Below, piece after piece: positions 443 through 56,032 of a stretch of DNA of 64,000 nt. The position numbers were made by a program, and so were the translations under genes. The DNA is from Escherichia coli (GTDB lineage: Bacteria > Pseudomonadota > Gammaproteobacteria > Enterobacterales > Enterobacteriaceae), in NCBI RefSeq assembly GCF_024502345.1, contig NZ_JALDNN010000001.1; one strand, 5' to 3'. Under the pieces are notes generated by a model, which made no database searches, was not told the DNA's origin, and saw only the letters and a program-made list of their open reading frames with translations. Numbering within the stretch: the first letter of the stretch is position 1; each line of letters begins with the position of its first letter.

Positions 443-2779
443 ATGAAGCAAATTCGTCTGCTGGCGCAGTATTATGTTGACCTGATGATGAAGTTAGGTC
501 TGGTGCGCTTCTCAATGTTGCTGGCGCTGGCCCTCGTCGTTCTTGCCATTGTGGTACAAATGGCGGTAACCATGGTGCTGCATGGTCAGGTCGAAAGCAT
601 TGATGTTATTCGTTCTATCTTCTTTGGTTTGCTGATTACGCCGTGGGCGGTCTACTTTCTATCGGTGGTCGTCGAGCAACTGGAGGAGTCACGACAACGT
701 CTGTCACGGCTGGTGCAAAAACTGGAGGAGATGCGCGAGCGCGATTTGAGCCTCAACGTTCAGTTAAAAGATAATATTGCCCAGCTAAATCAGGAAATTG
801 CCGTTCGTGAAAAAGCGGAAGCAGAACTGCAGGAAACCTTCGGCCAACTGAAAATTGAAATCAAAGAGCGCGAAGAGACACAAATTCAGCTCGAGCAGCA
901 ATCCTCATTCTTACGTTCCTTCCTTGATGCTTCACCCGACCTGGTTTTTTATCGTAACGAAGATAAAGAGTTTTCCGGCTGTAACCGCGCGATGGAGCTG
1001 CTGACCGGAAAAAGCGAAAAACAACTGGTTCATCTGAAACCTGCTGATGTTTACTCACCGGAAGCCGCTGCGAAAGTCATTGAAACCGATGAAAAAGTGT
1101 TCCGTCATAATGTGTCACTGACCTATGAACAGTGGCTGGATTACCCGGACGGGCGCAAAGCCTGCTTTGAAATCCGTAAAGTGCCGTACTACGACCGCGT
1201 GGGTAAACGTCACGGTTTGATGGGCTTTGGTCGCGACATTACCGAGCGTAAGCGGTATCAGGATGCGCTTGAACGGGCCAGCCGCGACAAAACGACGTTT
1301 ATCTCCACCATCAGTCACGAATTGCGTACACCGCTGAACGGTATCGTCGGCCTGAGCCGCATTCTGCTGGATACCGAACTCACCGCCGAGCAGGAAAAAT
1401 ATCTCAAAACTATCCATGTTTCGGCCGTCACGCTGGGGAATATCTTTAACGATATTATCGACATGGATAAGATGGAACGGCGCAAGGTCCAGCTTGATAA
1501 TCAGCCGGTTGATTTCACCAGCTTCCTTGCCGATCTGGAAAATCTCTCCGCATTGCAGGCGCAACAAAAAGGATTGCGCTTTAACCTGGAGCCTACGCTG
1601 CCATTACCGCATCAGGTCATTACCGACGGGACGCGTTTACGGCAGATCCTGTGGAACCTCATCAGTAACGCCGTCAAATTCACCCAGCAAGGCCAGGTTA
1701 CCGTGCGCGTGCGCTACGATGAAGGCGATATGCTGCATTTTGAAGTGGAAGACTCTGGTATCGGCATTCCGCAGGATGAGCTGGATAAAATCTTCGCCAT
1801 GTATTACCAGGTGAAAGACAGTCATGGCGGTAAACCTGCCACCGGCACCGGTATTGGTCTGGCCGTTTCTCGTCGTCTGGCGAAAAATATGGGCGGCGAT
1901 ATTACGGTTACCAGCGAACAGGGCAAAGGTTCAACCTTTACGTTGACGATCCACGCACCGTCGGTGGCAGAAGAGGTCGATGATGCGTTTGATGAAGACG
2001 ATATGCCTTTACCGGCGCTGAATGTGCTACTGGTGGAAGACATTGAACTGAACGTGATTGTTGCGCGTTCTGTGCTGGAAAAATTAGGTAACAGCGTTGA
2101 TGTCGCCATGACCGGCAAGGCGGCGCTGGAGATGTTTAAACCGGGCGAATACGACCTGGTGTTGCTGGATATTCAGTTGCCAGATATGACCGGGCTGGAT
2201 ATCTCTCGTGAACTGACGAAGCGTTATCCGCGCGAGGATTTACCGCCGCTGGTGGCCTTAACCGCTAACGTGCTGAAAGACAAACAAGAGTACCTCAATG
2301 CTGGAATGGATGATGTGCTGAGTAAGCCGCTTTCTGTTCCGGCGCTAACCGCGATGATCAAGAAATTCTGGGATACCCAGGATGATGAGGAGAGTACGGT
2401 GACGACAGAAGAGAACAGTAAATCAGAAGCATTGCTCGATATTCCCATGCTGGAACAGTATCTCGAACTTGTAGGACCGAAGCTGATCACCGACGGGTTA
2501 GCGGTGTTTGAGAAGATGATGCCAGGCTATGTCAGCGTGCTGGAGTCGAATCTGACGGCGCAGGATAAAAAAGGCATTGTTGAGGAAGGACATAAAATTA
2601 AAGGTGCGGCGGGGTCAGTGGGGTTACGCCATCTGCAACAGCTGGGTCAGCAAATTCAGTCTCCTGACCTTCCTGCCTGGGAAGATAACGTCGGTGAATG
2701 GATTGAAGAGATGAAAGAAGAGTGGCGTCACGACGTAGAAGTGCTGAAAGCGTGGGTGGCAAAAGCCACTAAAAAATGA
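443..2779 (+). CDS. arcB: aerobic respiration control sensor kinase ArcB
   Basis: 778 aa; N-terminal membrane segment, H-box (SHELRTPLN), ATPase, receiver and HPt regions; length and sequence as recalled for ArcB. Confidence 0.97.
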   Translation: MKQIRLLAQYYVDLMMKLGLVRFSMLLALALVVLAIVVQMAVTMVLHGQVESIDVIRSIFFGLLITPWAVYFLSVVVEQLEESRQRLSRLVQKLEEMRERDLSLNVQLKDNIAQLNQEIAVREKAEAELQETFGQLKIEIKEREETQIQLEQQSSFLRSFLDASPDLVFYRNEDKEFSGCNRAMELLTGKSEKQLVHLKPADVYSPEAAAKVIETDEKVFRHNVSLTYEQWLDYPDGRKACFEIRKVPYYDRVGKRHGLMGFGRDITERKRYQDALERASRDKTTFISTISHELRTPLNGIVGLSRILLDTELTAEQEKYLKTIHVSAVTLGNIFNDIIDMDKMERRKVQLDNQPVDFTSFLADLENLSALQAQQKGLRFNLEPTLPLPHQVITDGTRLRQILWNLISNAVKFTQQGQVTVRVRYDEGDMLHFEVEDSGIGIPQDELDKIFAMYYQVKDSHGGKPATGTGIGLAVSRRLAKNMGGDITVTSEQGKGSTFTLTIHAPSVAEEVDDAFDEDDMPLPALNVLLVEDIELNVIVARSVLEKLGNSVDVAMTGKAALEMFKPGEYDLVLLDIQLPDMTGLDISRELTKRYPREDLPPLVALTANVLKDKQEYLNAGMDDVLSKPLSVPALTAMIKKFWDTQDDEESTVTTEENSKSEALLDIPMLEQYLELVGPKLITDGLAVFEKMMPGYVSVLESNLTAQDKKGIVEEGHKIKGAAGSVGLRHLQQLGQQIQSPDLPAWEDNVGEWIEEMKEEWRHDVEVLKAWVAKATKK

Positions 2780-2891
2780 CCCCGGCTAGACCGGGGTGCG
2801 CGAATACTGCGCCAACACCAGGGAAATCTTGGCTGCGCCGTAAATTATTATGATGAGTTACAAGGGCACAGCACTGTTTTTCAGGCCGCAC
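2771..2891 (-). ncRNA. arcZ: ArcZ small RNA (SraH/RyhA)
   Basis: 121 nt; reverse complement reads GTGCGGCCTGAAAAACAGTGCTG...GGTCTAGCCGGGGTCATTTTTT, matching ArcZ as I recall it; 3' hairpin plus U-tract at 2771-2798 overlaps the arcB stop. Confidence 0.85.
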
Positions 2892-3008
2892 GCAGTTAAG
2901 ATAGCAAAACTTAAATGATTTGTTACATGAATCAGTTAAATGTGTGATGCGTACCATTTTTATTAAAAAAATTAATGTGTTTCAGTCAATTGCGAAAGGA
3001 TGATCACA

Positions 3009-3662
3009 ATGAAGAAAATTGGCGTAATTCTGAGCGGATGCGGCGTCTATGACGGTTCTGAAATTCATGAAGCGGTGTTGACGTTGTTAGCTATTTCACG
3101 CAGCGGTGCGCAGGCGGTCTGCTTTGCACCGGATAAGCAGCAGGTTGATGTTATCAACCATTTAACTGGCGAAGCGATGACGGAAACGCGCAACGTGCTG
3201 ATTGAAGCGGCACGAATAACGCGCGGTGAAATCCGTCCTCTGGCCCAGGCCGATGCCGCTGAACTGGATGCGTTGATTGTGCCGGGGGGGTTTGGCGCGG
3301 CGAAGAATTTAAGCAATTTTGCCACTCTTGGTAGCGAATGCACCGTTGACCGTGAATTAAAGGCGCTGGCACAAGCGATGCATCAGGCCGGAAAACCGCT
3401 TGGTTTTATGTGTATTGCCCCGGCGATGCTGCCGAAAATTTTCGATTTCCCGCTGCGTTTGACCATCGGTACTGATATCGATACCGCAGAAGTGCTGGAA
3501 GAGATGGGCGCGGAGCATGTGCCGTGTCCTGTCGATGATATCGTGGTTGATGAAGACAATAAGATTGTCACCACCCCAGCATATATGCTGGCGCAGAACA
3601 TTGCAGAAGCGGCGAGCGGCATTGATAAGCTGGTTTCCCGCGTGCTGGTTCTGGCTGAATGA
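3009..3662 (+). CDS. elbB: glyoxalase ElbB (DJ-1/PfpI-like)
   Basis: 217 aa from ATG at 3009 (track ORF starts 9 nt earlier); [21 protein letters not shown]. Confidence 0.9.
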
Positions 3663-4387
3663 GTAAAAGCCGCTTAACGGTGTTTAGTTTCGTTCGCCGT
3701 TTTCTTTTGCGGTTAATGGTTGTCCTCGCCGTTTTCTGGGGCGGGGGCATCGCGTTGTTTAGCGTTGCGCCTGTTCCCTTCTCAGCGGTAATGGTCGAGC
3801 GACAGGTCAGCGCCTGGCTGCATGGCAATTTTCGTTACGTGGCACATTCTGACTGGGTCAGTATGGATCAAATCTCGCCGTGGATGGGACTGGCGGTGAT
3901 TGCCGCAGAAGATCAGAAATTTCCTGAGCACTGGGGCTTTGATGTCGCTTCCATTGAGAAAGCCCTGGCGCACAATGAGCGCAATGAAAACCGTATTCGC
4001 GGTGCTTCAACGATTTCTCAACAGACAGCCAAAAATCTCTTTTTATGGGATGGGCGTAGCTGGGTTCGAAAAGGGCTGGAAGCCGGATTAACGCTGGGGA
4101 TAGAAACTGTCTGGAGCAAAAAGCGTATCCTGACGGTTTACCTGAATATCGCCGAATTTGGCGACGGTGTGTTTGGCGTCGAAGCTGCGGCACAACGTTA
4201 TTTCCACAAACCCGCGAGCAAACTTACCCGATCGGAAGCTGCCTTACTGGCAGCTGTATTACCTAATCCACTTCGTTTCAAAGTCTCCGCGCCATCGGGC
4301 TACGTGCGCAGCCGTCAGGCGTGGATTTTACGGCAGATGTATCAGTTAGGCGGTGAGCCGTTTATGCAACAACACCAGCTGGATTAA
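3659..4387 (+). CDS. mtgA: monofunctional peptidoglycan glycosyltransferase MtgA
   Basis: 242 aa; transglycosylase motifs; 4-nt overlap with elbB stop. Confidence 0.92.
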
Positions 4388-5016
4388 GCTTCGCGCGAAG
4401 CGAGGGCCAGCGTTTTGCTCTCACGAGGTTGCAGATCTTTCTGCAGGGCAATAGCCAGCGCCGGTTGGGCGATAAATCGTTTCCACAACCGCTCTTGCTT
4501 ACGCAGACAACACCACTTTGACCAGGTCGCCAGTGGAATCAATGTGCTTTCACCAATGTTGTCGCAGACAACGGGGATAACCTCTGACTCACTAATGCGG
4601 TGACAGAGGATATTCTGCGGCTTCAGCGACATCGTCACGATACGGTTATCCTGCAAATAACACTTCAGATGTTTCAGTAACTGGCGCAGTTGTGCAACGT
4701 CTTCTTCGTAACGGCATTGTTCAGCAAATTCGGTCAGCGTAATGGAGGGCTTGCCGTCAAAATCGGCAATCACATCGTAGACATAACCGGTTCCGCAATC
4801 CGTCTCAACGGTACCGTGATAGCGCGGTATTCCACTCCAGTCTTTTAACCGGCGACCAAGATGCGCGTAGTACTTTAACTCACGACGGATCTCTTTATCG
4901 CCACCATCGCCACGATGGTAGACAATCTTGATACAGCGTTGGGCATCTTCCGGATGCGCATAACATTTCCGATGTCTTCCGGTGCCCAGGGGACTTTGTT
5001 CAGATAAGCGAATCAT
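4384..5016 (-). CDS. yrbL: protein YrbL
   Basis: 210 aa ORF, convergent with mtgA; sequence and position as in K-12. Confidence 0.85.
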
Positions 5017-16973: not shown

Positions 16974-18233
<1,260 letters not shown>

Positions 18234-24360: not shown

Positions 24361-24607
24361 AATCTCGCGCTAACAACCTGGAATCGAGCCGTCATACTAC
24401 GGCGCAACGCCCTATAAAGTAAACGATGACCCTTCGGGAACTTCAGGGTAAAATGACTATCAAAATGTGAATTGTAGCTGACCTGGGACTTGTACCCGGG
24501 TCGGTATTTTTTTGCTTCTGGTCCCGGTGAGGAGTTATGCCGGGCAGGCCGAACAGCCGGGGTGGGTGAAGACTTGCCCCATCAGGAATATTCAAGAGGT
24601 ATAACAA

Positions 24608-31164: not shown

Positions 31165-31251
31165 GCCGAGGTGGTGGAATTGGTAGACACGCTACCTTGA
31201 GGTGGTAGTGCCCAATAGGGCTTACGGGTTCAAGTCCCGTCCTCGGTACCA
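31165..31251 (+). tRNA. leuU: tRNA-Leu (anticodon GAG)
   Basis: 87 nt; acceptor stem GCCGAGG/CCTCGGT, anticodon loop CTTGAGG, long variable arm, 3' CCA encoded. Confidence 0.9.
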
Positions 31252-34153: not shown

Positions 34154-34230
<77 letters not shown>

Positions 34231-34351
34231 CTTTCCCTTAGAGTCCTTTTTCAAATATACTGTGAAGACTTCGGCCTTCGTAGTGGGATTTGAAAAAATC
34301 CTTCTGGAAAGTGCTCCAGACCGCAGTTGCGGTTATAGGGTTCAGTTATAT

Positions 34352-34378
34352 AAAGCCCCGATTTATCGGGGTTTTTTG
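34352..34378 (+). terminator. terminator/attenuator-like hairpin between metY and rimP
   Basis: AAAGCCCCGATTTATCGGGGTTTTTTG; a second weaker hairpin plus T7 run follows at about 34398-34420. Confidence 0.5.
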
Positions 34379-34436
34379 TTATCTGACTACAGAATAACTG
34401 GGCTTTAGGCCCTTTTTTTATGTCTTGGGGGTGGGC

Positions 34437-36428: not shown

Positions 36429-39101
36429 ATGACAGATGTAACGATTAAAACGCTGGCCGCAGAGCGACAGACCTCCGTGGAACGCCTGGTACAGCAATTT
36501 GCTGATGCAGGTATCCGGAAGTCTGCTGACGACTCTGTGTCTGCACAAGAGAAACAGACTTTGATTGACCACCTGAATCAGAAAAATTCAGGCCCGGACA
36601 AATTGACGCTGCAACGTAAAACACGCAGCACCCTTAACATTCCTGGTACCGGTGGAAAAAGCAAATCGGTACAAATCGAAGTCCGCAAGAAACGCACCTT
36701 TGTGAAACGCGATCCGCAAGAGGCTGAACGCCTTGCAGCGGAAGAGCAAGCGCAGCGTGAAGCGGAAGAGCAAGCCCGTCGTGAGGCAGAAGAATCGGCT
36801 AAACGCGAGGCGCAACAAAAAGCTGAACGTGAGGCCGCAGAACAAGCTAAGCGTGAAGCTGCTGAACAAGCGAAACGTGAAGCTGCGGAAAAAGACAAAG
36901 TGAGCAATCAACAAGACGATATGACTAAAAACGCCCAGGCTGAAAAAGCCCGCCGTGAGCAGGAAGCTGCAGAGCTCAAGCGTAAAGCTGAAGAAGAAGC
37001 GCGTCGTAAACTCGAAGAAGAAGCACGTCGCGTTGCTGAAGAAGCACGTCGTATGGCGGAAGAAAACAAATGGACTGATAACGCGGAACCGACTGAAGAT
37101 TCCAGCGATTATCACGTCACTACTTCTCAACATGCTCGCCAGGCAGAAGACGAAAGCGATCGTGAAGTCGAAGGCGGCCGTGGCCGTGGTCGTAACGCGA
37201 AAGCAGCGCGTCCGAAGAAAGGCAACAAACACGCTGAATCAAAAGCTGATCGTGAAGAAGCACGCGCAGCAGTACGTGGCGGTAAAGGCGGAAAACGTAA
37301 AGGTTCTTCCCTGCAGCAAGGCTTCCAGAAGCCTGCTCAGGCCGTTAACCGTGACGTTGTGATCGGCGAAACCATCACCGTTGGCGAACTGGCGAACAAG
37401 ATGGCGGTTAAAGGCTCTCAGGTCATCAAAGCGATGATGAAACTGGGCGCAATGGCAACCATCAACCAGGTTATCGATCAGGAAACCGCACAGCTGGTTG
37501 CTGAAGAGATGGGCCACAAAGTTATCCTGCGTCGTGAAAACGAGCTGGAAGAGGCGGTAATGAGCGACCGTGACACGGGTGCTGCGGCTGAACCGCGCGC
37601 GCCGGTTGTGACCATCATGGGTCACGTTGACCACGGTAAAACCTCTCTGCTGGACTACATTCGTTCAACGAAAGTTGCCTCTGGCGAAGCGGGCGGCATT
37701 ACCCAGCACATTGGTGCATACCACGTTGAAACTGAAAACGGCATGATCACCTTCCTGGACACCCCGGGGCACGCCGCGTTTACTTCAATGCGTGCACGTG
37801 GTGCGCAGGCAACGGACATCGTAGTCCTGGTTGTTGCTGCCGACGACGGCGTGATGCCGCAGACCATCGAAGCAATCCAGCACGCGAAAGCGGCGCAGGT
37901 ACCGGTGGTGGTTGCAGTGAACAAGATTGATAAACCAGAAGCCGATCCGGATCGTGTTAAGAACGAACTCTCCCAGTATGGCATCCTGCCGGAAGAGTGG
38001 GGCGGTGAAAGCCAGTTCGTACACGTATCTGCGAAAGCGGGTACCGGCATCGATGAACTGCTGGACGCTATCCTGCTGCAGGCGGAAGTTCTGGAGCTGA
38101 AAGCGGTACGTAAAGGTATGGCGAGCGGTGCGGTTATCGAATCCTTCCTCGATAAAGGTCGTGGTCCGGTTGCTACCGTTCTGGTACGTGAAGGTACTCT
38201 GCACAAGGGCGATATCGTTCTGTGTGGCTTCGAATACGGTCGTGTTCGTGCGATGCGTAACGAACTGGGTCAGGAAGTGCTGGAAGCGGGTCCGTCCATT
38301 CCGGTGGAAATCCTCGGCCTGTCCGGCGTACCGGCTGCGGGTGATGAAGTTACCGTTGTACGTGACGAGAAGAAAGCGCGTGAAGTTGCACTGTATCGTC
38401 AGGGTAAATTCCGCGAAGTTAAACTGGCGCGTCAGCAGAAATCTAAACTCGAGAACATGTTCGCCAACATGACCGAAGGCGAAGTTCACGAAGTGAACAT
38501 TGTCCTGAAGGCAGACGTACAGGGTTCTGTGGAAGCGATCTCCGACTCCTTGCTGAAACTGTCTACTGACGAAGTTAAAGTGAAGATCATCGGTTCTGGC
38601 GTAGGTGGTATCACCGAAACCGACGCCACCCTGGCTGCGGCGTCCAACGCCATCCTGGTTGGCTTTAATGTACGTGCTGATGCCTCTGCACGTAAAGTGA
38701 TTGAAGCGGAAAGCCTGGATCTGCGTTACTACTCCGTCATCTATAACCTGATCGACGAAGTGAAAGCGGCAATGAGCGGTATGCTGTCTCCGGAACTGAA
38801 ACAACAGATTATCGGTCTGGCGGAAGTTCGTGACGTATTCAAATCACCGAAATTTGGTGCCATTGCAGGTTGTATGGTTACCGAAGGTGTGGTTAAACGT
38901 CACAACCCGATCCGCGTTCTGCGCGACAACGTGGTTATCTACGAAGGCGAGCTGGAGTCCCTGCGCCGCTTCAAAGATGACGTTAACGAAGTCCGTAACG
39001 GTATGGAATGTGGTATCGGCGTTAAGAACTACAACGATGTCCGCACTGGCGATGTGATCGAAGTATTCGAGATCATCGAAATCCAACGTACCATCGCTTA
39101 A
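36429..39101 (+). CDS. infB: translation initiation factor IF-2
   Basis: 890 aa; repetitive [11 protein letters not shown]-terminal region, G domain ([18 protein letters not shown]). Confidence 0.97.
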
Positions 39102-39114
39102 GGTTGTCTGGGTT

Positions 39115-39188
39115 GTAGGCCGGATAAGGCTTTTACGCCGCATCCGGCAGCCGTTGCCTGATGTGACGCTGGCGCGTCTTATCAGGCC
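39115..39188. repeat. REP (repetitive extragenic palindrome) pair
   Basis: GTAGGCCGGATAAGGC...ACGCCGCATCCGGCA and GCCTGATGTGACGCTGGCGCGTCTTATCAGGCC. Confidence 0.7.
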
Positions 39189-39223
39189 AACGTGAACAGC
39201 CCTTCCACCTGAAATTAATTTTA

Positions 39224-39249
39224 AAAAGGGGCTAACAGCCCCTTTTTTG
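39224..39249 (+). terminator. hairpin plus T-run immediately upstream of rbfA
   Basis: AAAAGGGGCTAACAGCCCCTTTTTTG. Confidence 0.55.
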
Positions 39250-39264
39250 TCAGGAGAATTTATT

Positions 39265-39666
39265 ATGGCGAAAGAATTTGGTCGCCCGCAGCGCGTAGCG
39301 CAGGAAATGCAAAAAGAGATCGCTCTCATCCTGCAGCGTGAAATTAAAGATCCTCGCCTGGGCATGATGACCACCGTTTCCGGTGTCGAAATGTCTCGCG
39401 ACCTGGCGTATGCCAAAGTATATGTGACGTTCCTCAACGACAAAGATGAAGACGCGGTTAAAGCGGGCATCAAAGCGTTGCAAGAAGCTTCTGGTTTCAT
39501 CCGCAGCCTGCTGGGGAAAGCGATGCGCCTGCGTATCGTGCCGGAACTGACCTTCTTCTACGACAACTCTCTGGTTGAAGGGATGCGCATGTCAAACCTG
39601 GTGACCAGCGTGGTCAAACATGACGAAGAACGTCGTGTTAACCCGGACGACAGCAAGGAGGACTAA
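39265..39666 (+). CDS. rbfA: ribosome-binding factor A
   Basis: 133 aa from ATG at 39265 ([15 protein letters not shown]). Confidence 0.93.
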
Positions 39667-40662: not shown

Positions 40663-41137
<475 letters not shown>

Positions 41138-41274
41138 AGGTTCGCGCGGCTAATGAGAGGCTTTACCCACATTGGGCTGGGTTAGGGTTGTCATTAGTCG
41201 CGAGGATGCGCAGAAGATCGGGTATTAACACCAGTGCCGTAAGGTACTGTCTAAGAAAGAGAAAGGATATTACA

Positions 41275-46624: not shown

Positions 46625-47869
46625 ATGGCAACACTAACCACCACCCAAACGTCACCGTCGCTGCTTGGCGGCGTGGTGATTATCGGCGGCACCATTATTG
46701 GCGCAGGGATGTTTTCTCTGCCAGTGGTCATGTCCGGGGCGTGGTTTTTCTGGTCAATGGCGGCGCTGATCTTTACCTGGTTCTGTATGCTGCATTCCGG
46801 CTTGATGATTCTGGAAGCTAACCTGAATTACAGAATCGGTTCGAGTTTTGACACCATCACCAAAGATTTGCTGGGCAAAGGCTGGAACGTGGTCAACGGC
46901 ATTTCCATTGCCTTTGTGCTCTATATCCTGACCTATGCCTATATTTCTGCCAGTGGTTCGATTCTGCATCACACCTTCGCAGAGATGTCACTAAACGTCC
47001 CGGCACGGGCGGCGGGTTTTGGTTTTGCATTGCTGGTAGCGTTTGTGGTGTGGTTGAGCACTAAAGCCGTCAGTCGCATGACAGCGATTGTGCTGGGGGC
47101 GAAAGTCATTACCTTCTTCCTCACCTTTGGTAGCCTGCTGGGGCATGTGCAGCCTGCGACATTGTTCAACGTCGCCGAAAGCAATGCGTCTTATGCACCG
47201 TATCTGTTGATGACCCTGCCGTTCTGTCTGGCATCGTTTGGTTATCACGGTAACGTGCCAAGCCTGATGAAGTATTACGGCAAAGATCCGAAAACCATCG
47301 TGAAATGCCTGGTGTACGGTACGCTGATGGCGCTGGCGCTGTATACCATCTGGTTGCTGGCGACGATGGGTAACATCCCGCGTCCGGAGTTTATCGGTAT
47401 TGCAGAGAAGGGCGGTAATATTGATGTGCTGGTACAGGCGTTAAGCGGCGTACTGAACAGCCGTAGTCTGGATCTGCTGCTGGTCGTGTTCTCAAACTTT
47501 GCGGTAGCGAGTTCGTTCCTCGGCGTAACGCTGGGTTTGTTTGACTATCTGGCAGATCTGTTTGGTTTCGACGACTCGGCTGTGGGCCGCTTGAAAACGG
47601 CATTGCTGACCTTTGCCCCGCCAGTTGTGGGGGGGCTGTTGTTCCCGAACGGATTCCTGTACGCCATTGGTTATGCTGGTTTAGCGGCTACCATCTGGGC
47701 GGCAATTGTTCCGGCGCTGTTAGCCCGTGCATCGCGTAAACGCTTTGGCAGCCCGAAATTCCGCGTCTGGGGTGGCAAGCCGATGATTGCGCTGATTCTG
47801 GTGTTTGGCGTCGGCAACGCACTGGTGCATATTTTATCGAGCTTTAATTTACTGCCGGTGTATCAGTAA
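46625..47869 (+). CDS. mtr: tryptophan-specific permease Mtr
   Basis: 414 aa polytopic membrane protein. Confidence 0.93.
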
Positions 47870-47872
47870 TCA

Positions 47873-47975
47873 GCGGGCCTTATCCGACATTTCTGCTGCC
47901 TACACAATGCCTGATGCGCTTCGCTTATCAGGCCTACGTAGGACAGCGTTGCCAGCTCGGATAAGGCTTCCCGCG
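47873..47975. repeat. REP cluster
   Basis: Contains GCCTGATGCGCTTCGCTTATCAGGCCTAC flanked by partial REP copies. Confidence 0.7.
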
Positions 47976-47985
47976 TTAAGACACA

Positions 47986-48993
47986 CTATCCCAACAACTC
48001 TTCCTTAACATCCATCGCCAGCTCAAACGAATGCAGGCGCGCCTGGTGGTCGAAAATCTGCCCGTTAACCATAATCTCATCGGCGTCGGTTTCGCGCAGG
48101 ATCGACTGCAAGCCATGACGCACTTTCGCTTTATCGCCCACCAGCGACATACTCAGCGCCTGTTGCACGCCATACTGCTCAGACGGTGACCAGAACTGAT
48201 CCATATTTTGAATCGGCGGCGGCAGTTGCCCGGTTTCGCCACGGCGCAGCTTCACAAAGGCTTGCTGCATTGAGGTAAACAGAAATTCAGCGTCGCGGTT
48301 GCTGTCGGCAGCGATAATATTGATGCACACCATCGCGTATGGTTTTTCCAGTCGTGCCGACGGTTTGAAGTTGCTGCGATAAAGATGCAGCGCCTGGAAC
48401 AACATATCCGGCGCGAAGTGTGAGGCAAACGCAAACGGCAGACCAAGCTGCGCCGCCAGTTGCGCGCTGTAAAGGCTGGAGCCTAACAACCACACGGGGA
48501 TTTTCTCGCCATAGCCTGGTACCGGGCGCACATGCGGATTGGGATCGCGGGCGTCAAACCAGTCCACCAGCTCCGCCACATCGCGGGGGAAATTATCAAT
48601 ATCGCCGCTCATATGACGACGTAGCGCCATCATTGTCCGTTGGTCACTACCCGGAGCACGACCCAGCCCCAAATCGATTCGCCCCGGATAGAGTGTATTA
48701 AGCGTGCCGAACTGTTCTGCAATGACCAACGGTGAGTGGTTAGGCAACATCACGCCGCCAGACCCCAGATGCAGCGTGGTGGTATTCGCCGCCAGATAGC
48801 CAATCAATACCGACGTGGCAGCACTGGCAATGCCAGTCATATTGTGGTGTTCTGCCAGCCAGTAGCGATGATAGCCGCGCTTTTCAGCCAGACGGGCGAG
48901 ATCGAGAGAGTGGGAGAATGCTTCTCGCGCTGAAGAACCTTCGGGAATGGGGGCCAGATCGAGTAGCGAAAACGCAATGGTTTTATCAGTCAT
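47986..48993 (-). CDS. yhbW: luciferase-like monooxygenase family protein YhbW
   Basis: 335 aa. Confidence 0.88.
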
Positions 48994-54302: not shown

Positions 54303-55343
54303 ATGACTGGTCAGTCTTCATCTCAGGCGGCAACGCCCATTCAGTGGTGGAAACCCGCGCTTTTCTTTCTCGTTGTCATTGCCGGTCTCTGGTATGTGAA
54401 ATGGCAACCTTACTACGGCAAAGCGTTTACTGCAGCCGAAACCCACAGTATCGGTAAATCTATCCTTGCGCAGGCGGATGCTAATCCATGGCAGGCGGCG
54501 TTGGATTACGCGATGATCTATTTCCTCGCGGTATGGAAAGCGGCGGTGCTGGGGGTGATCCTCGGTTCGTTGATTCAGGTGCTGATCCCGCGTGGCTGGT
54601 TGTTGCGTACGCTTGGGCAATCGCGCTTTCGCGGCACGCTGCTGGGAACGCTGTTTTCACTGCCGGGCATGATGTGTACCTGCTGTGCGGCTCCGGTCGC
54701 GGCGGGAATGCGTCGCCAACAGGTGTCGATGGGCGGTGCGCTGGCATTCTGGATGGGGAATCCGTTGTTAAACCCGGCGACGCTGGTGTTTATGGGTTTT
54801 GTCCTCGGTTGGCAATTTGCCGCGATTCGTCTGGTGGCGGGCCTGGTGATGGTGTTGCTGATTGCGACGCTGGTGCAAAAATGGGTGCGTGAAACACCGC
54901 AAACGCAGGCACCGGTCGAAATTGACATACCGGAAGCACAGGGCGGATTTTTTAGCCGCTGGGGCAGGGCGCTATGGACGCTTTTCTGGAGTACGATCCC
55001 GGTTTACATCCTTGCAGTACTGGTGTTGGGTGCCGCTCGCGTCTGGTTATTCCCCCATGCCGATGGTGCTGTCGATAACAGCCTGATGTGGGTGGTGGCG
55101 ATGGCGGTAGCAGGATGCTTGTTTGTCATTCCCACGGCAGCAGAAATTCCGATTGTACAAACGATGATGCTGGCAGGTATGGGAACTGCTCCGGCGCTGG
55201 CATTGTTGATGACGCTCCCGGCGGTGAGTTTGCCGTCACTGATTATGCTGCGCAAAGCGTTCCCGGCGAAAGCCTTATGGCTGACAGGGGCGATGGTGGC
55301 AGTGTCAGGCGTGATTGTCGGCGGGCTGGCGCTGTTATTCTGA
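54303..55343 (+). CDS. yraQ: permease family inner membrane protein YraQ
   Basis: 346 aa polytopic membrane protein. Confidence 0.85.
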   Translation: MTGQSSSQAATPIQWWKPALFFLVVIAGLWYVKWQPYYGKAFTAAETHSIGKSILAQADANPWQAALDYAMIYFLAVWKAAVLGVILGSLIQVLIPRGWLLRTLGQSRFRGTLLGTLFSLPGMMCTCCAAPVAAGMRRQQVSMGGALAFWMGNPLLNPATLVFMGFVLGWQFAAIRLVAGLVMVLLIATLVQKWVRETPQTQAPVEIDIPEAQGGFFSRWGRALWTLFWSTIPVYILAVLVLGAARVWLFPHADGAVDNSLMWVVAMAVAGCLFVIPTAAEIPIVQTMMLAGMGTAPALALLMTLPAVSLPSLIMLRKAFPAKALWLTGAMVAVSGVIVGGLALLF

Positions 55344-55358
55344 TTTGAGGGAAAACAT

Positions 55359-55442
55359 GTCGGATGCGGCGTAAACGCCTTATCCGACCTACGGTTTGCA
55401 TCGTTGTAGGCCTGATAAGACGCGGCAAGCGTCGCATCAGGC
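55359..55442. repeat. REP pair
   Basis: TGTCGGATGCGGCGTAAACGCCTTATCCGACCTAC and GTAGGCCTGATAAGACGCGGCAAGCGTCGCATCAGGC. Confidence 0.7.
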
Positions 55443-55456
55443 ATTACAAGGGGCTG

Positions 55457-56032
55457 CTATTTAATAAACGTAAACGCCGTAGTTACCCGCTTCACGCCGC
55501 TCACCCGGCTGGCAATATCTGCCGCCGCTTTCGCTTCACGTTCAGTCACCAGCCCCATCAGGAACACTTCACCGTTTTCGGTGGTCACTTTCACGTTGGA
55601 CGATTTCACCAGGTCGCTGGTTAAGAGCTGCGAACGCACTTTGGTGGTGATCCACGTATCATTAGACGCTTCGCCCAGACCAATCGGCTGGCCCTGACGA
55701 ATCTCGTTATACACTTCGTTGGCACCGTCTACGCCCATAGCAATCTGTTTGGCGCGAGCCGAAAGTTCAGCGTTTGGTGACTGCCCAACCAGCAGCACTT
55801 TGCCCTGATAGGCCGTTACATTAATGCGCGCTTCTTTCTTAATCTGTTCGTCTTTCGACAATGCGCTGTTCACGCGCACTTCCAGGGTACCATCGTCCAC
55901 CTGGGTGCCGACACTGCGTGGGTCAGTTGCGGCTTTGGTACCCACAGCAGCGGTACCCACTACGGCAGCGGCAACACAACCTTGCAACAGCAGCGCGGAA
56001 ATAAGGACTGCGATTGGCGATAATGCCTTCAT
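55457..56032 (-). CDS. dolP: BON-domain outer membrane lipoprotein DolP (YraP)
   Basis: 191 aa; lipobox LLQGC. Confidence 0.9.
   Translation of the reverse strand: MKALSPIAVLISALLLQGCVAAAVVGTAAVGTKAATDPRSVGTQVDDGTLEVRVNSALSKDEQIKKEARINVTAYQGKVLLVGQSPNAELSARAKQIAMGVDGANEVYNEIRQGQPIGLGEASNDTWITTKVRSQLLTSDLVKSSNVKVTTENGEVFLMGLVTEREAKAAADIASRVSGVKRVTTAFTFIK

Follow-up and report, generated by a model that had tools for sequence, protein, structure and literature searches.

The 64,000-nucleotide stretch of the Escherichia coli chromosome analysed here (the window) contains three intergenic gaps that are free of open reading frames (ORFs): one between the convergent genes mtr and yhbW, one between the tandem genes infB and rbfA, and one between the convergent genes yraQ and dolP. 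An earlier note on this DNA had placed imperfect palindromes of the repetitive extragenic palindromic (REP) type in each of these gaps. Among the repeats of E. coli, REPs are the most abundant and have been known the longest; these repeats, also called palindromic units, and the bacterial interspersed mosaic elements (BIMEs) of the species were reportedly described by Stern in 1984 and by Gilson and Bachellier between 1991 and 1999. Matches to other genomes bore out the gene names given in the note. A 601-base stretch around the mtr–yhbW REP was 100% identical to strain GF3-3 and had a match in 5,424 of 5,426 complete E. coli genomes, the set from which all population counts below are taken.

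We found that the three gaps contain exactly five full-length REP units. Our references were the Y, Z1 and Z2 sequences given in the Methods section of Durrant 2024 (PMC11208160), with which we scanned the whole window by blastn-short. The scan returned the five units with E-values of 1e-9 to 1e-12, and over their full length they are 92–97% identical to the published units (35/38 to 34/35). A search for the 13-base tail motif TTATCMGRCCTAC, allowing at most one mismatch, gave five matches, all of them inside the three intervals, against 0.07 expected by chance; none of 100 shuffled sequences reached five. No sixth full-length REP was found by blastn-short in the 64 kb, where the next best matches were fragments of 13–17 nucleotides (nt) in coding ORFs. 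A perfect 13-nt REP head at 17863–17875 was treated as a chance match because it lies inside an ORF (16974–18233) and has no second half. Consensus comparison, tail-motif search and blastn-short scan thus agree in placing REP-type palindromes in all three gaps, each of which also yields matches in a pattern search with the REP consensus. The earlier note had found every REP of the window and listed none that is spurious, and the match of all five units to the published REP/BIME family bears out its description of them as ordinary for E. coli. Two of its details needed correction. The Y string that it quoted, GCCGGATGCGGCGTAAACGCCTTATCCGGCCTAC, is the consensus and has no verbatim copy in the window, where the actual Y copies read GTCGGATGCGGCGTAAACGCCTTATCCGACCTAC and, on the minus strand, GCCGGATGCGGCGTAAAAGCCTTATCCGGCCTAC; and the end of the infB–rbfA pair moves from 39188 to 39191.

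Every REP unit forms a hairpin with an internal loop in minimum-energy folds, and the stem arms are 82–86% complementary by inverted-repeat search. The predicted hairpins are strong on both strands (fold z-scores of −4.9 to −6.7). In the imperfect stem with its conserved mismatch and in their extragenic 3′ location, the units are like the Y, Z1 and Z2 palindromic units and the BIME-2 elements of E. coli. The Y unit at 55358–55392 shows a compensated stem change, GTCGGA...TCCGAC, relative to the consensus GCCGGA...TCCGGC. All five units are extragenic and lie 13–40 nt past stop codons, between convergent or tandem genes; the gap from stop codon to REP is 13 nt for infB, 15 nt for yraQ and 14 nt for dolP (39099–39115, 55341–55359 and 55442–55459, respectively). 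Strong folds directly after stop codons could also mean that the hairpins are locus-specific intrinsic terminators that look like REPs by chance. We give this explanation practically no credence, however, considering the full-length identity to published Y, Z1 and Z2 units, the number of tail-motif matches, the many copies per genome and the lack of a U-tract after any of the five units; the consensus comparison, the tail-motif count and the blastn-short scan had already refuted it. The query for the Z1 spacer matched a median of 19 places per genome (E ≤ 1e-3) and the Y+Z2 query a median of 9 (megablast), both figures being lower bounds and not a full census. The K-12 RefSeq feature table has no REP entries. 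Separately, the Z1 REP core gave about 398 matches on E. coli plasmids, and REP copies are therefore not strictly chromosomal.

The GTAG foot of the REP family (a CTAC tail on the other strand) is kept in four of the five units. For the Y unit at 39115–39149 this foot is the canonical GTAGG, read on the plus strand; the Z1 unit at 47909–47937 reads GTAGG at its foot on the bottom strand. The infB–rbfA Z2 unit differs from the family in having lost it: because its tail is CCAAC in place of CCTAC, the bottom strand reads GTTG and the CT core of the target of the insertion sequence IS621 is absent. Two of the three loci are arranged as BIME-2, with Y(−) and Z2(+) head-to-head at 39115–39192 and Y(+) and Z2(−) tail-to-tail at 55358–55442, an assignment made from unit order and orientation. 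They share with BIME-2 arrays the alternating orientation of Y and Z2 and a unit number that varies between strains. The mtr–yhbW copy departs from the REP/BIME family in two ways: it is a Z1 standing by itself, lacking a Y partner, and it is embedded in a longer locus-specific palindrome. We rejected a BIME-1 or IHF-binding (RIP) reading of this element because it lacks an IHF consensus and, by blastn-short, a full Y unit; it also has no IHF-containing L motif.

These arrangements bear on a possible role at the level of DNA, in which the units would be bound or cleaved by gyrase, DNA polymerase I or nucleoid proteins and would organise supercoiling between genes that are convergent or strongly transcribed, with the RNA hairpins incidental. 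Positive supercoils build up between convergent genes, where two of the loci lie. Two loci also consist of a Y+Z2 pair of the BIME-2 kind, and PMC1525189 cites the cleavage of BIME-2 by gyrase as well as binding of DNA polymerase I and IHF. Yet none of the seven matches to the IHF consensus in the window falls within the three spacers, and a study of REP325 reported no REP–REP chromosomal contacts and no effect on the nucleoid (bioRxiv 10.64898/2026.03.23.713779). We regard a DNA-level role as conceivable but unlikely.

Table 1. REP units, associated elements and neighbouring genes in the window.
Feature	Position	Strand	Remarks
Y-type REP	39115–39149	−	34/35 to published Y; E = 1.4e-12
Head-to-head linker GCCGTT, 6 nt	39150–39155		Read from the sequence and unit boundaries
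Z2-type REP	39156–39192	+	35/37 to published Z2; one mismatch in tail motif
Z1-type REP	47909–47937 (match to 47938)	+	29/30 to published Z1; blastn-short E = 1e-9; sequence GCCTGATGCGCTTCGCTTATCAGGCCTAC
Y-type REP	55358–55392	+	33/35 to published Y; E = 2e-11; hairpin in fold
Tail-to-tail linker GGTTTGCATCGT, 12 nt	55393–55404		From the sequence and the inverted-repeat list
Z2-type REP	55405–55442	−	35/38 to published Z2; E = 1.4e-9; hairpin in fold
Left outer arm, mtr–yhbW	47873–47904		Contains GCCTTATCCGA, a 10-nt match to Y REP positions 19–28 (tail-side arm)
Right outer arm, mtr–yhbW	47938–47975		GTAGGACAGCGTTGCCAGCTCGGATAAGGCTTCCCGC; pairs with the left arm in folds
IS621 target ATCAGGCCTAC	47927–47937	+	Exact; CT core 47934–47935; in mtr–yhbW Z1; empty here
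IS621 target ATCAGGCCTAC	55406–55416	−	Exact; in yraQ–dolP Z2; empty here
Hairpin plus T6 run, not a REP	39223–39249	+	AAAAAGGGGCTAACAGCCCCTTTTTTG; perfect 11-nt inverted repeat, strong in fold
infB	36429–39101	+	Tandem with rbfA, inside nusA–infB operon; stop codon 39099–39101
rbfA	ATG at 39265	+	Tandem with infB
mtr	46625–47869	+	Convergent with yhbW
yhbW	47986–48993	−	Convergent with mtr
yraQ	54303–55343	+	Convergent with dolP; stop codon 55341–55343
dolP	55457–56032	−	Convergent with yraQ

The earlier note had described the whole of 47873–47975, between mtr and yhbW, as a REP cluster. We found that only 47909–47937 is a canonical REP and that the remainder is a locus-specific extended palindrome. 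In the folds the entire spacer forms a single nested hairpin of about 100 nt, with Z1 as the inner hairpin on both strands (−51.3 kcal/mol and z −5.8 on the plus strand; −54.7 kcal/mol and z −4.9 on the minus strand). This composite begins 3 nt past mtr, and its other end is 10 nt short of yhbW. Its outer arms contain a perfect 11-nt inverted repeat (47877–47887 and 47957–47967, GCCTTATCCGA/TCGGATAAGGC), in which blastn-short detected two fragments of Y, at 47877–47886 and 47958–47967, each matching Y positions 19–28. The composite is present in one copy per genome. We also considered the outer arms as a repeat family of their own and rejected this because the spacer as a whole is single-copy in each genome, and the remaining matches listed mainly span the REP core.

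To trace the history of the composite, we searched with the conserved end of mtr in one genome per species, which gave 55 loci across Enterobacteriaceae. Downstream of mtr, Citrobacter, Salmonella, Raoultella and others have a tail-to-tail REP pair of other classes; Enterobacter, Kluyvera and Leclercia have a repeat of the type CCCTCTCCC...GGGAGAGGG; and Franconibacter has a plain bidirectional terminator hairpin. The composite with its nested Z1 is common to E. whittamii, Escherichia sp. E1V33 and Escherichia sp. MOD1-EC7003, and E. albertii has the same start over the 49 nt available. Because it is common to several Escherichia species, the composite is probably older than the radiation of the genus. 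Its sequence hardly varies in other Escherichia (110/112 identical to E. whittamii). Its identity to the window is 89–98%, compared with approximately 94% in flanking coding DNA, a weak and mixed signal of constraint beyond the flanking genes that we do not find convincing. Two further records vary at this position: in MOD1-EC7003 (from about 820 of its locus onward) the outermost composite stem is deleted and resemblance to yhbW ends some 100 nt inside the gene, and a record titled E. coli E69 has a repeat of the CCCTCACCCTAACCCTC type after mtr in place of the composite (32 nt available).

Viewed alongside the REP pairs of sister genera, the Y-arm fragments suggest that an earlier REP pair fell into decay and that Z1 may have been inserted in its linker. 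No empty site without the Z1 unit was found among the mtr–yhbW spacers compared. In a fuller version of this history, an ancestral tail-to-tail REP pair, such as Citrobacter and Salmonella still have at this position, would have been reduced to two Y-arm fragments, with Z1 then inserted beside a GTAG foot in the linker. The resulting composite of about 100 nt would then have been held nearly unchanged across Escherichia because it is the only bidirectional 3′-end structure for mtr and yhbW, and its REP tail would now be among the most occupied natural IS621 sites, with insertions on two or more divergent backgrounds. We offer this sequence of events as speculative, and on balance doubtful.

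The infB–rbfA pair matched the Rfam family naRNA4 (RF02564) at 39118–39188 with 76.6 bits against a gathering score of 59.5; the yraQ–dolP units (38.4 and 34.7 bits) and the mtr–yhbW element (15.5 bits) stayed below the threshold. On the strength of this match the pair might encode a naRNA4-type non-coding RNA that condenses the chromosome with HU. However, the model derives from the REP325 array and amounts to a Y+Z2 REP pair, which means that any such pair can match it, and the other two loci do not reach the threshold. The function is itself disputed, with REP325/naRNA4 having no measurable effect on nucleoid compaction (bioRxiv 10.64898/2026.03.23.713779), and we consider this explanation very improbable. 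The pair does resemble REP325, which lies in the yjdM–yjdN spacer: it is likewise a Y+Z2 pair with the same secondary structure, it too lies between tandem genes of one operon, and it scores above the family gathering score. It differs in being a single pair, whereas REP325 is a multi-unit array.

The same spacer contains a second structure, a hairpin with a T6 run that lies 16 nt upstream of the rbfA start codon and, by eye, looks like an intrinsic terminator or attenuator. A consensus terminator scan did not call it, and the terminator reading is thus by eye only. With this one addition, the REPs are the main structured content of the three spacers and account for their lack of ORFs, as the earlier note had proposed. 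The Y REP after infB (39106–39155) exists in two allele classes, which are separated by about 14 clustered differences between nearly identical flanks. The canonical allele, GTAGGCCGG...AGCCGT, was found in the window, AHB5 and turkey strain 64.1, and the variant allele, CCATGCGGG...ATGGAT, which has no GTAG foot, in K-12, O157:H7 and chicken strain 2824. Such a pattern resembles gene conversion or the exchange of a single REP copy. In turkey strain 64.1 the infB–rbfA Z2 tail is CCTAC, and this strain therefore has an exact IS621 target there. A literature search found no paper that ties infB or rbfA to REPs. Laboratory strain BM28 lysU was seen to have an IS10-type element (annotated ISVsa5; 1668–3010 of its locus) at the infB stop codon, which parts infB from rbfA–truB; the element, with a 9-bp duplication, TGCTTAAGG (window ~39093–39101), lies just upstream of the REP pair and not within it.

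Insertion of IS621 into REP tails was reportedly described by Choi in 2003. IS621, a member of the IS110 family, inserts under the guidance of a bridge RNA (Hiraizumi 2024, PMC11208158). Its natural target is the 11-nt sequence ATCAGGCCTAC with a CT core, and most of its genomic insertions lie in REPs (Durrant 2024, PMC11208160), a preference also noted in PMC1525189. The supplements of Durrant 2024 (PMC11208160) give no gene names for the mtr–yhbW, infB–rbfA or yraQ–dolP loci. We found only two exact copies of the target in the window, one in the mtr–yhbW Z1 and one in the yraQ–dolP Z2. The earlier note had called REPs known targets of some insertion sequences, and both of these sites proved to be occupied in other strains: IS621 lies within the mtr–yhbW REP in 404 of 5,426 genomes (7.4%) and within the yraQ–dolP Z2 in 7. 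Strains 2012C-4606, IGC_RcoliRes_1.1 and EC581 have an IS110-family IS621 transposase gene between mtr and yhbW. Both junctions were read in the first two strains, the left one as ...TTATCAGGTCT^TGTATT... and the right one as ...ACAGTAT^CTACGTAGG... (^ marks the junction); in EC581 we read the right junction, which is the same. These junctions place IS621 exactly after the CT of the REP tail. The yraQ–dolP site was treated as a prediction, for which we joined the window flank in silico to the left end of IS621; this junction was intact in the 7 genomes and was checked in strain NCCP 13963. Across both loci the junctions take the form ...ATCAGG(C/T)CT^TGTATT... and ...ACAGTAT^CTAC....

The tails of the other three units are not exact targets. 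The Y tail at 39115–39125 has C at position 4, the Y tail at 55382–55392, ATCCGACCTAC, has a further change at position 7, and the Z2 tail at 39181–39191 has a CA core. No IS621 was seen in any of these three variant tails, and the infB–rbfA pair was uninterrupted in 5,422 of 5,425 genomes. At the mtr–yhbW REP, two IS621 copies were 97.4% identical and their 1-kb flanks 94–95% identical. Because the flanks differ by 5–6% and the elements by 2.6%, this comparison suggests that the REP was struck by IS621 more than once, in very divergent backgrounds. The occupied mtr–yhbW allele differs from the natural 11-nt target in having T, not C, just before the core. We rejected the idea that this T is a footprint of insertion because K-12, which is free of IS621 here, also has T, and because the IS621 sites at yraQ–dolP and ubiG–yfaL keep C; the T is a pre-existing allele.

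Each of the three spacers has counterparts in nearly all of the 5,426 E. coli genomes (80% coverage or more in 4,836 at mtr–yhbW, 5,422 at infB–rbfA and 4,971 at yraQ–dolP), and all three are polymorphic: repeats have been duplicated, REP alleles have been swapped, and a gene cassette or a different repeat family has taken the place of the repeats. Among the 5,424 genomes with a match at mtr–yhbW, 4,836 have the REP form, 404 have IS621 in the REP and 184 have a cassette instead. The cassette is 1.45 kb long, has a low GC content (36–44%) and replaces window positions 47870–47985 (3271–4715 in strain R32_14_1F). It encodes a 176-amino-acid protein with no Pfam match and a 239-amino-acid YkuD L,D-transpeptidase, the 3′ end of which overlaps yhbW. 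The cassette form also has a different small hairpin directly after mtr, and similar sequence follows mtr in Superficieibacter and Enterobacteriaceae UBA5654. At yraQ–dolP, 4,971 genomes have the BIME-2 form, 429 another palindromic repeat and 7 IS621 in Z2. The unit is doubled in strain EC24 (395–598, matching window 55358–55442), giving Y-Z2-Y-Z2 with a 7-nt head-to-head linker, a duplication seen in at least 1 of the 4,971 genomes with the BIME-2 form. The repeat that replaces BIME-2 in the 429 genomes, CCCCTCTCCCCTTTGGGGAGAGGGTTAGGGTGAGGGG, is multi-copy, with a median of 6 places per genome, and is accompanied by a different yraQ 3′ end; in strain EC19 (395–515) it takes the place of window 55344–55456. 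It is presumably akin to the 'Box C' repeat. A repeat of the same kind also fills the mtr–yhbW spacer in Enterobacter, Kluyvera, Leclercia and others. The infB–rbfA pair is kept in 5,422 of 5,425 genomes.

This variation is relevant to the possibility that the repeats have no host function and are selfish or decaying passengers (non-autonomous and REPIN-like) that are tolerated after stop codons. Presence varies, and at two loci a gene cassette or other repeat families stand where the units would be; a unit is duplicated in one strain, alleles differ in whether they retain GTAG, and across genera the mtr–yhbW spacer holds different palindromic families or a plain terminator. These observations are set against the near-invariance of the composite in other Escherichia (110/112 to E. 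whittamii, compared with about 94% in flanking coding DNA), the retention of the infB–rbfA pair in nearly all genomes, and published effects of some REPs on expression (bioRxiv 10.64898/2026.03.23.713779). We judge it unlikely that the repeats are nothing but passengers, although this is an alternative to be taken seriously.

A connection between REPs and the REP-associated tyrosine transposase (RAYT, or TnpA-REP) has been described (PMC2817692, PMC8266576), and the E. coli enzyme needs the GTAG foot and a bulge in the stem (PMC8266576). Four of the five units have GTAG 5′ of a bulged hairpin, as do the substrates of such a REPtron, and would on their sequence alone be candidate substrates; the Z2 unit of infB–rbfA, with GTTG, should be inert. 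The five units differ from REPtron substrates in that no recent mobility is evident, and the mtr–yhbW copy probably predates the split of the Escherichia species.

At the level of RNA, terminator scans called no canonical hairpin-plus-U terminator in the mtr–yhbW and yraQ–dolP spacers, which leaves the REP hairpins as the only strong 3′ structures in these two convergent spacers. Liang, Rudd and Deutscher reportedly found in 2015 that a REP no more than about 15 nt from a stop codon can stall terminating ribosomes, and the 13–15-nt gaps observed here are near that limit. REP325 has been described as both stabilising mRNA and partly terminating transcription, and convergent gene pairs with a REP as more highly expressed, with REP effects that depend on context and are not uniform (bioRxiv 10.64898/2026.03.23.713779). 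In the mechanism that we propose from the literature, transcribed REP hairpins in 3′ untranslated regions (UTRs) would block 3′-to-5′ exonucleases and partly stop read-through. The upstream messages (mtr, yhbW, yraQ, dolP and infB) would be raised or stabilised, and expression of rbfA–truB, downstream, would be lowered by the infB–rbfA pair. At the level of DNA, REPs would be passengers of the REP-associated tyrosine transposase in both their spread and their decay, the GTAG foot and the stem bulge being what this enzyme needs, and the IS621 bridge RNA would read the REP tail ATCAGGC-CT-AC as its target.

Taken together, we propose that the three gaps hold five ordinary REP copies, a Z1 nested in an older palindrome and two pairs of the BIME-2 kind, which would act as 3′-UTR hairpins and as passengers of the transposase and two of which serve as IS621 insertion sites in other strains; we put the probability of this joint explanation at about 0.9. 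Three points weigh against it. The REPs are absent in 184 genomes at mtr–yhbW and in 429 at yraQ–dolP, and are dispensable at these two loci because those genomes do without them. Covariation of the composite hairpin gave no compensatory change in any of 35 pairs among six Escherichia sequences; as these sequences are nearly identical, this result neither supports nor contradicts the structure. Finally, the likely RNA-level role of these particular hairpins is extrapolated from the literature.

Elsewhere in the window, Rfam matches at gathering level were seen at 2784–2891, 24391–24512, 31165–31248, 34154–34227, 34319–34419, 40701–40815 and 41045–41216. These comprise the ArcZ small RNA, the greA leader, two tRNAs, the rimP leader, the S15 leader and the SraG small RNA, all expected for a K-12-like region.

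These results are ordinary and fit the long-established REP/BIME family and the published target preference of IS621. Our additions are descriptive only: the nested architecture at mtr–yhbW, the frequencies of alternative spacer forms and the unequal occupancy by IS621. As these REP copies behave as expected, the result carries little weight for discovery. For annotation, the three gaps without ORFs now have an explanation, and no more searching for genes in them is needed. For work on bridge-RNA recombinases, the window offers two empty and exact natural targets of IS621. These targets are identical yet very unequally occupied (404 versus 7 genomes), a natural readout of target rules and of the tolerance of a locus to insertion.

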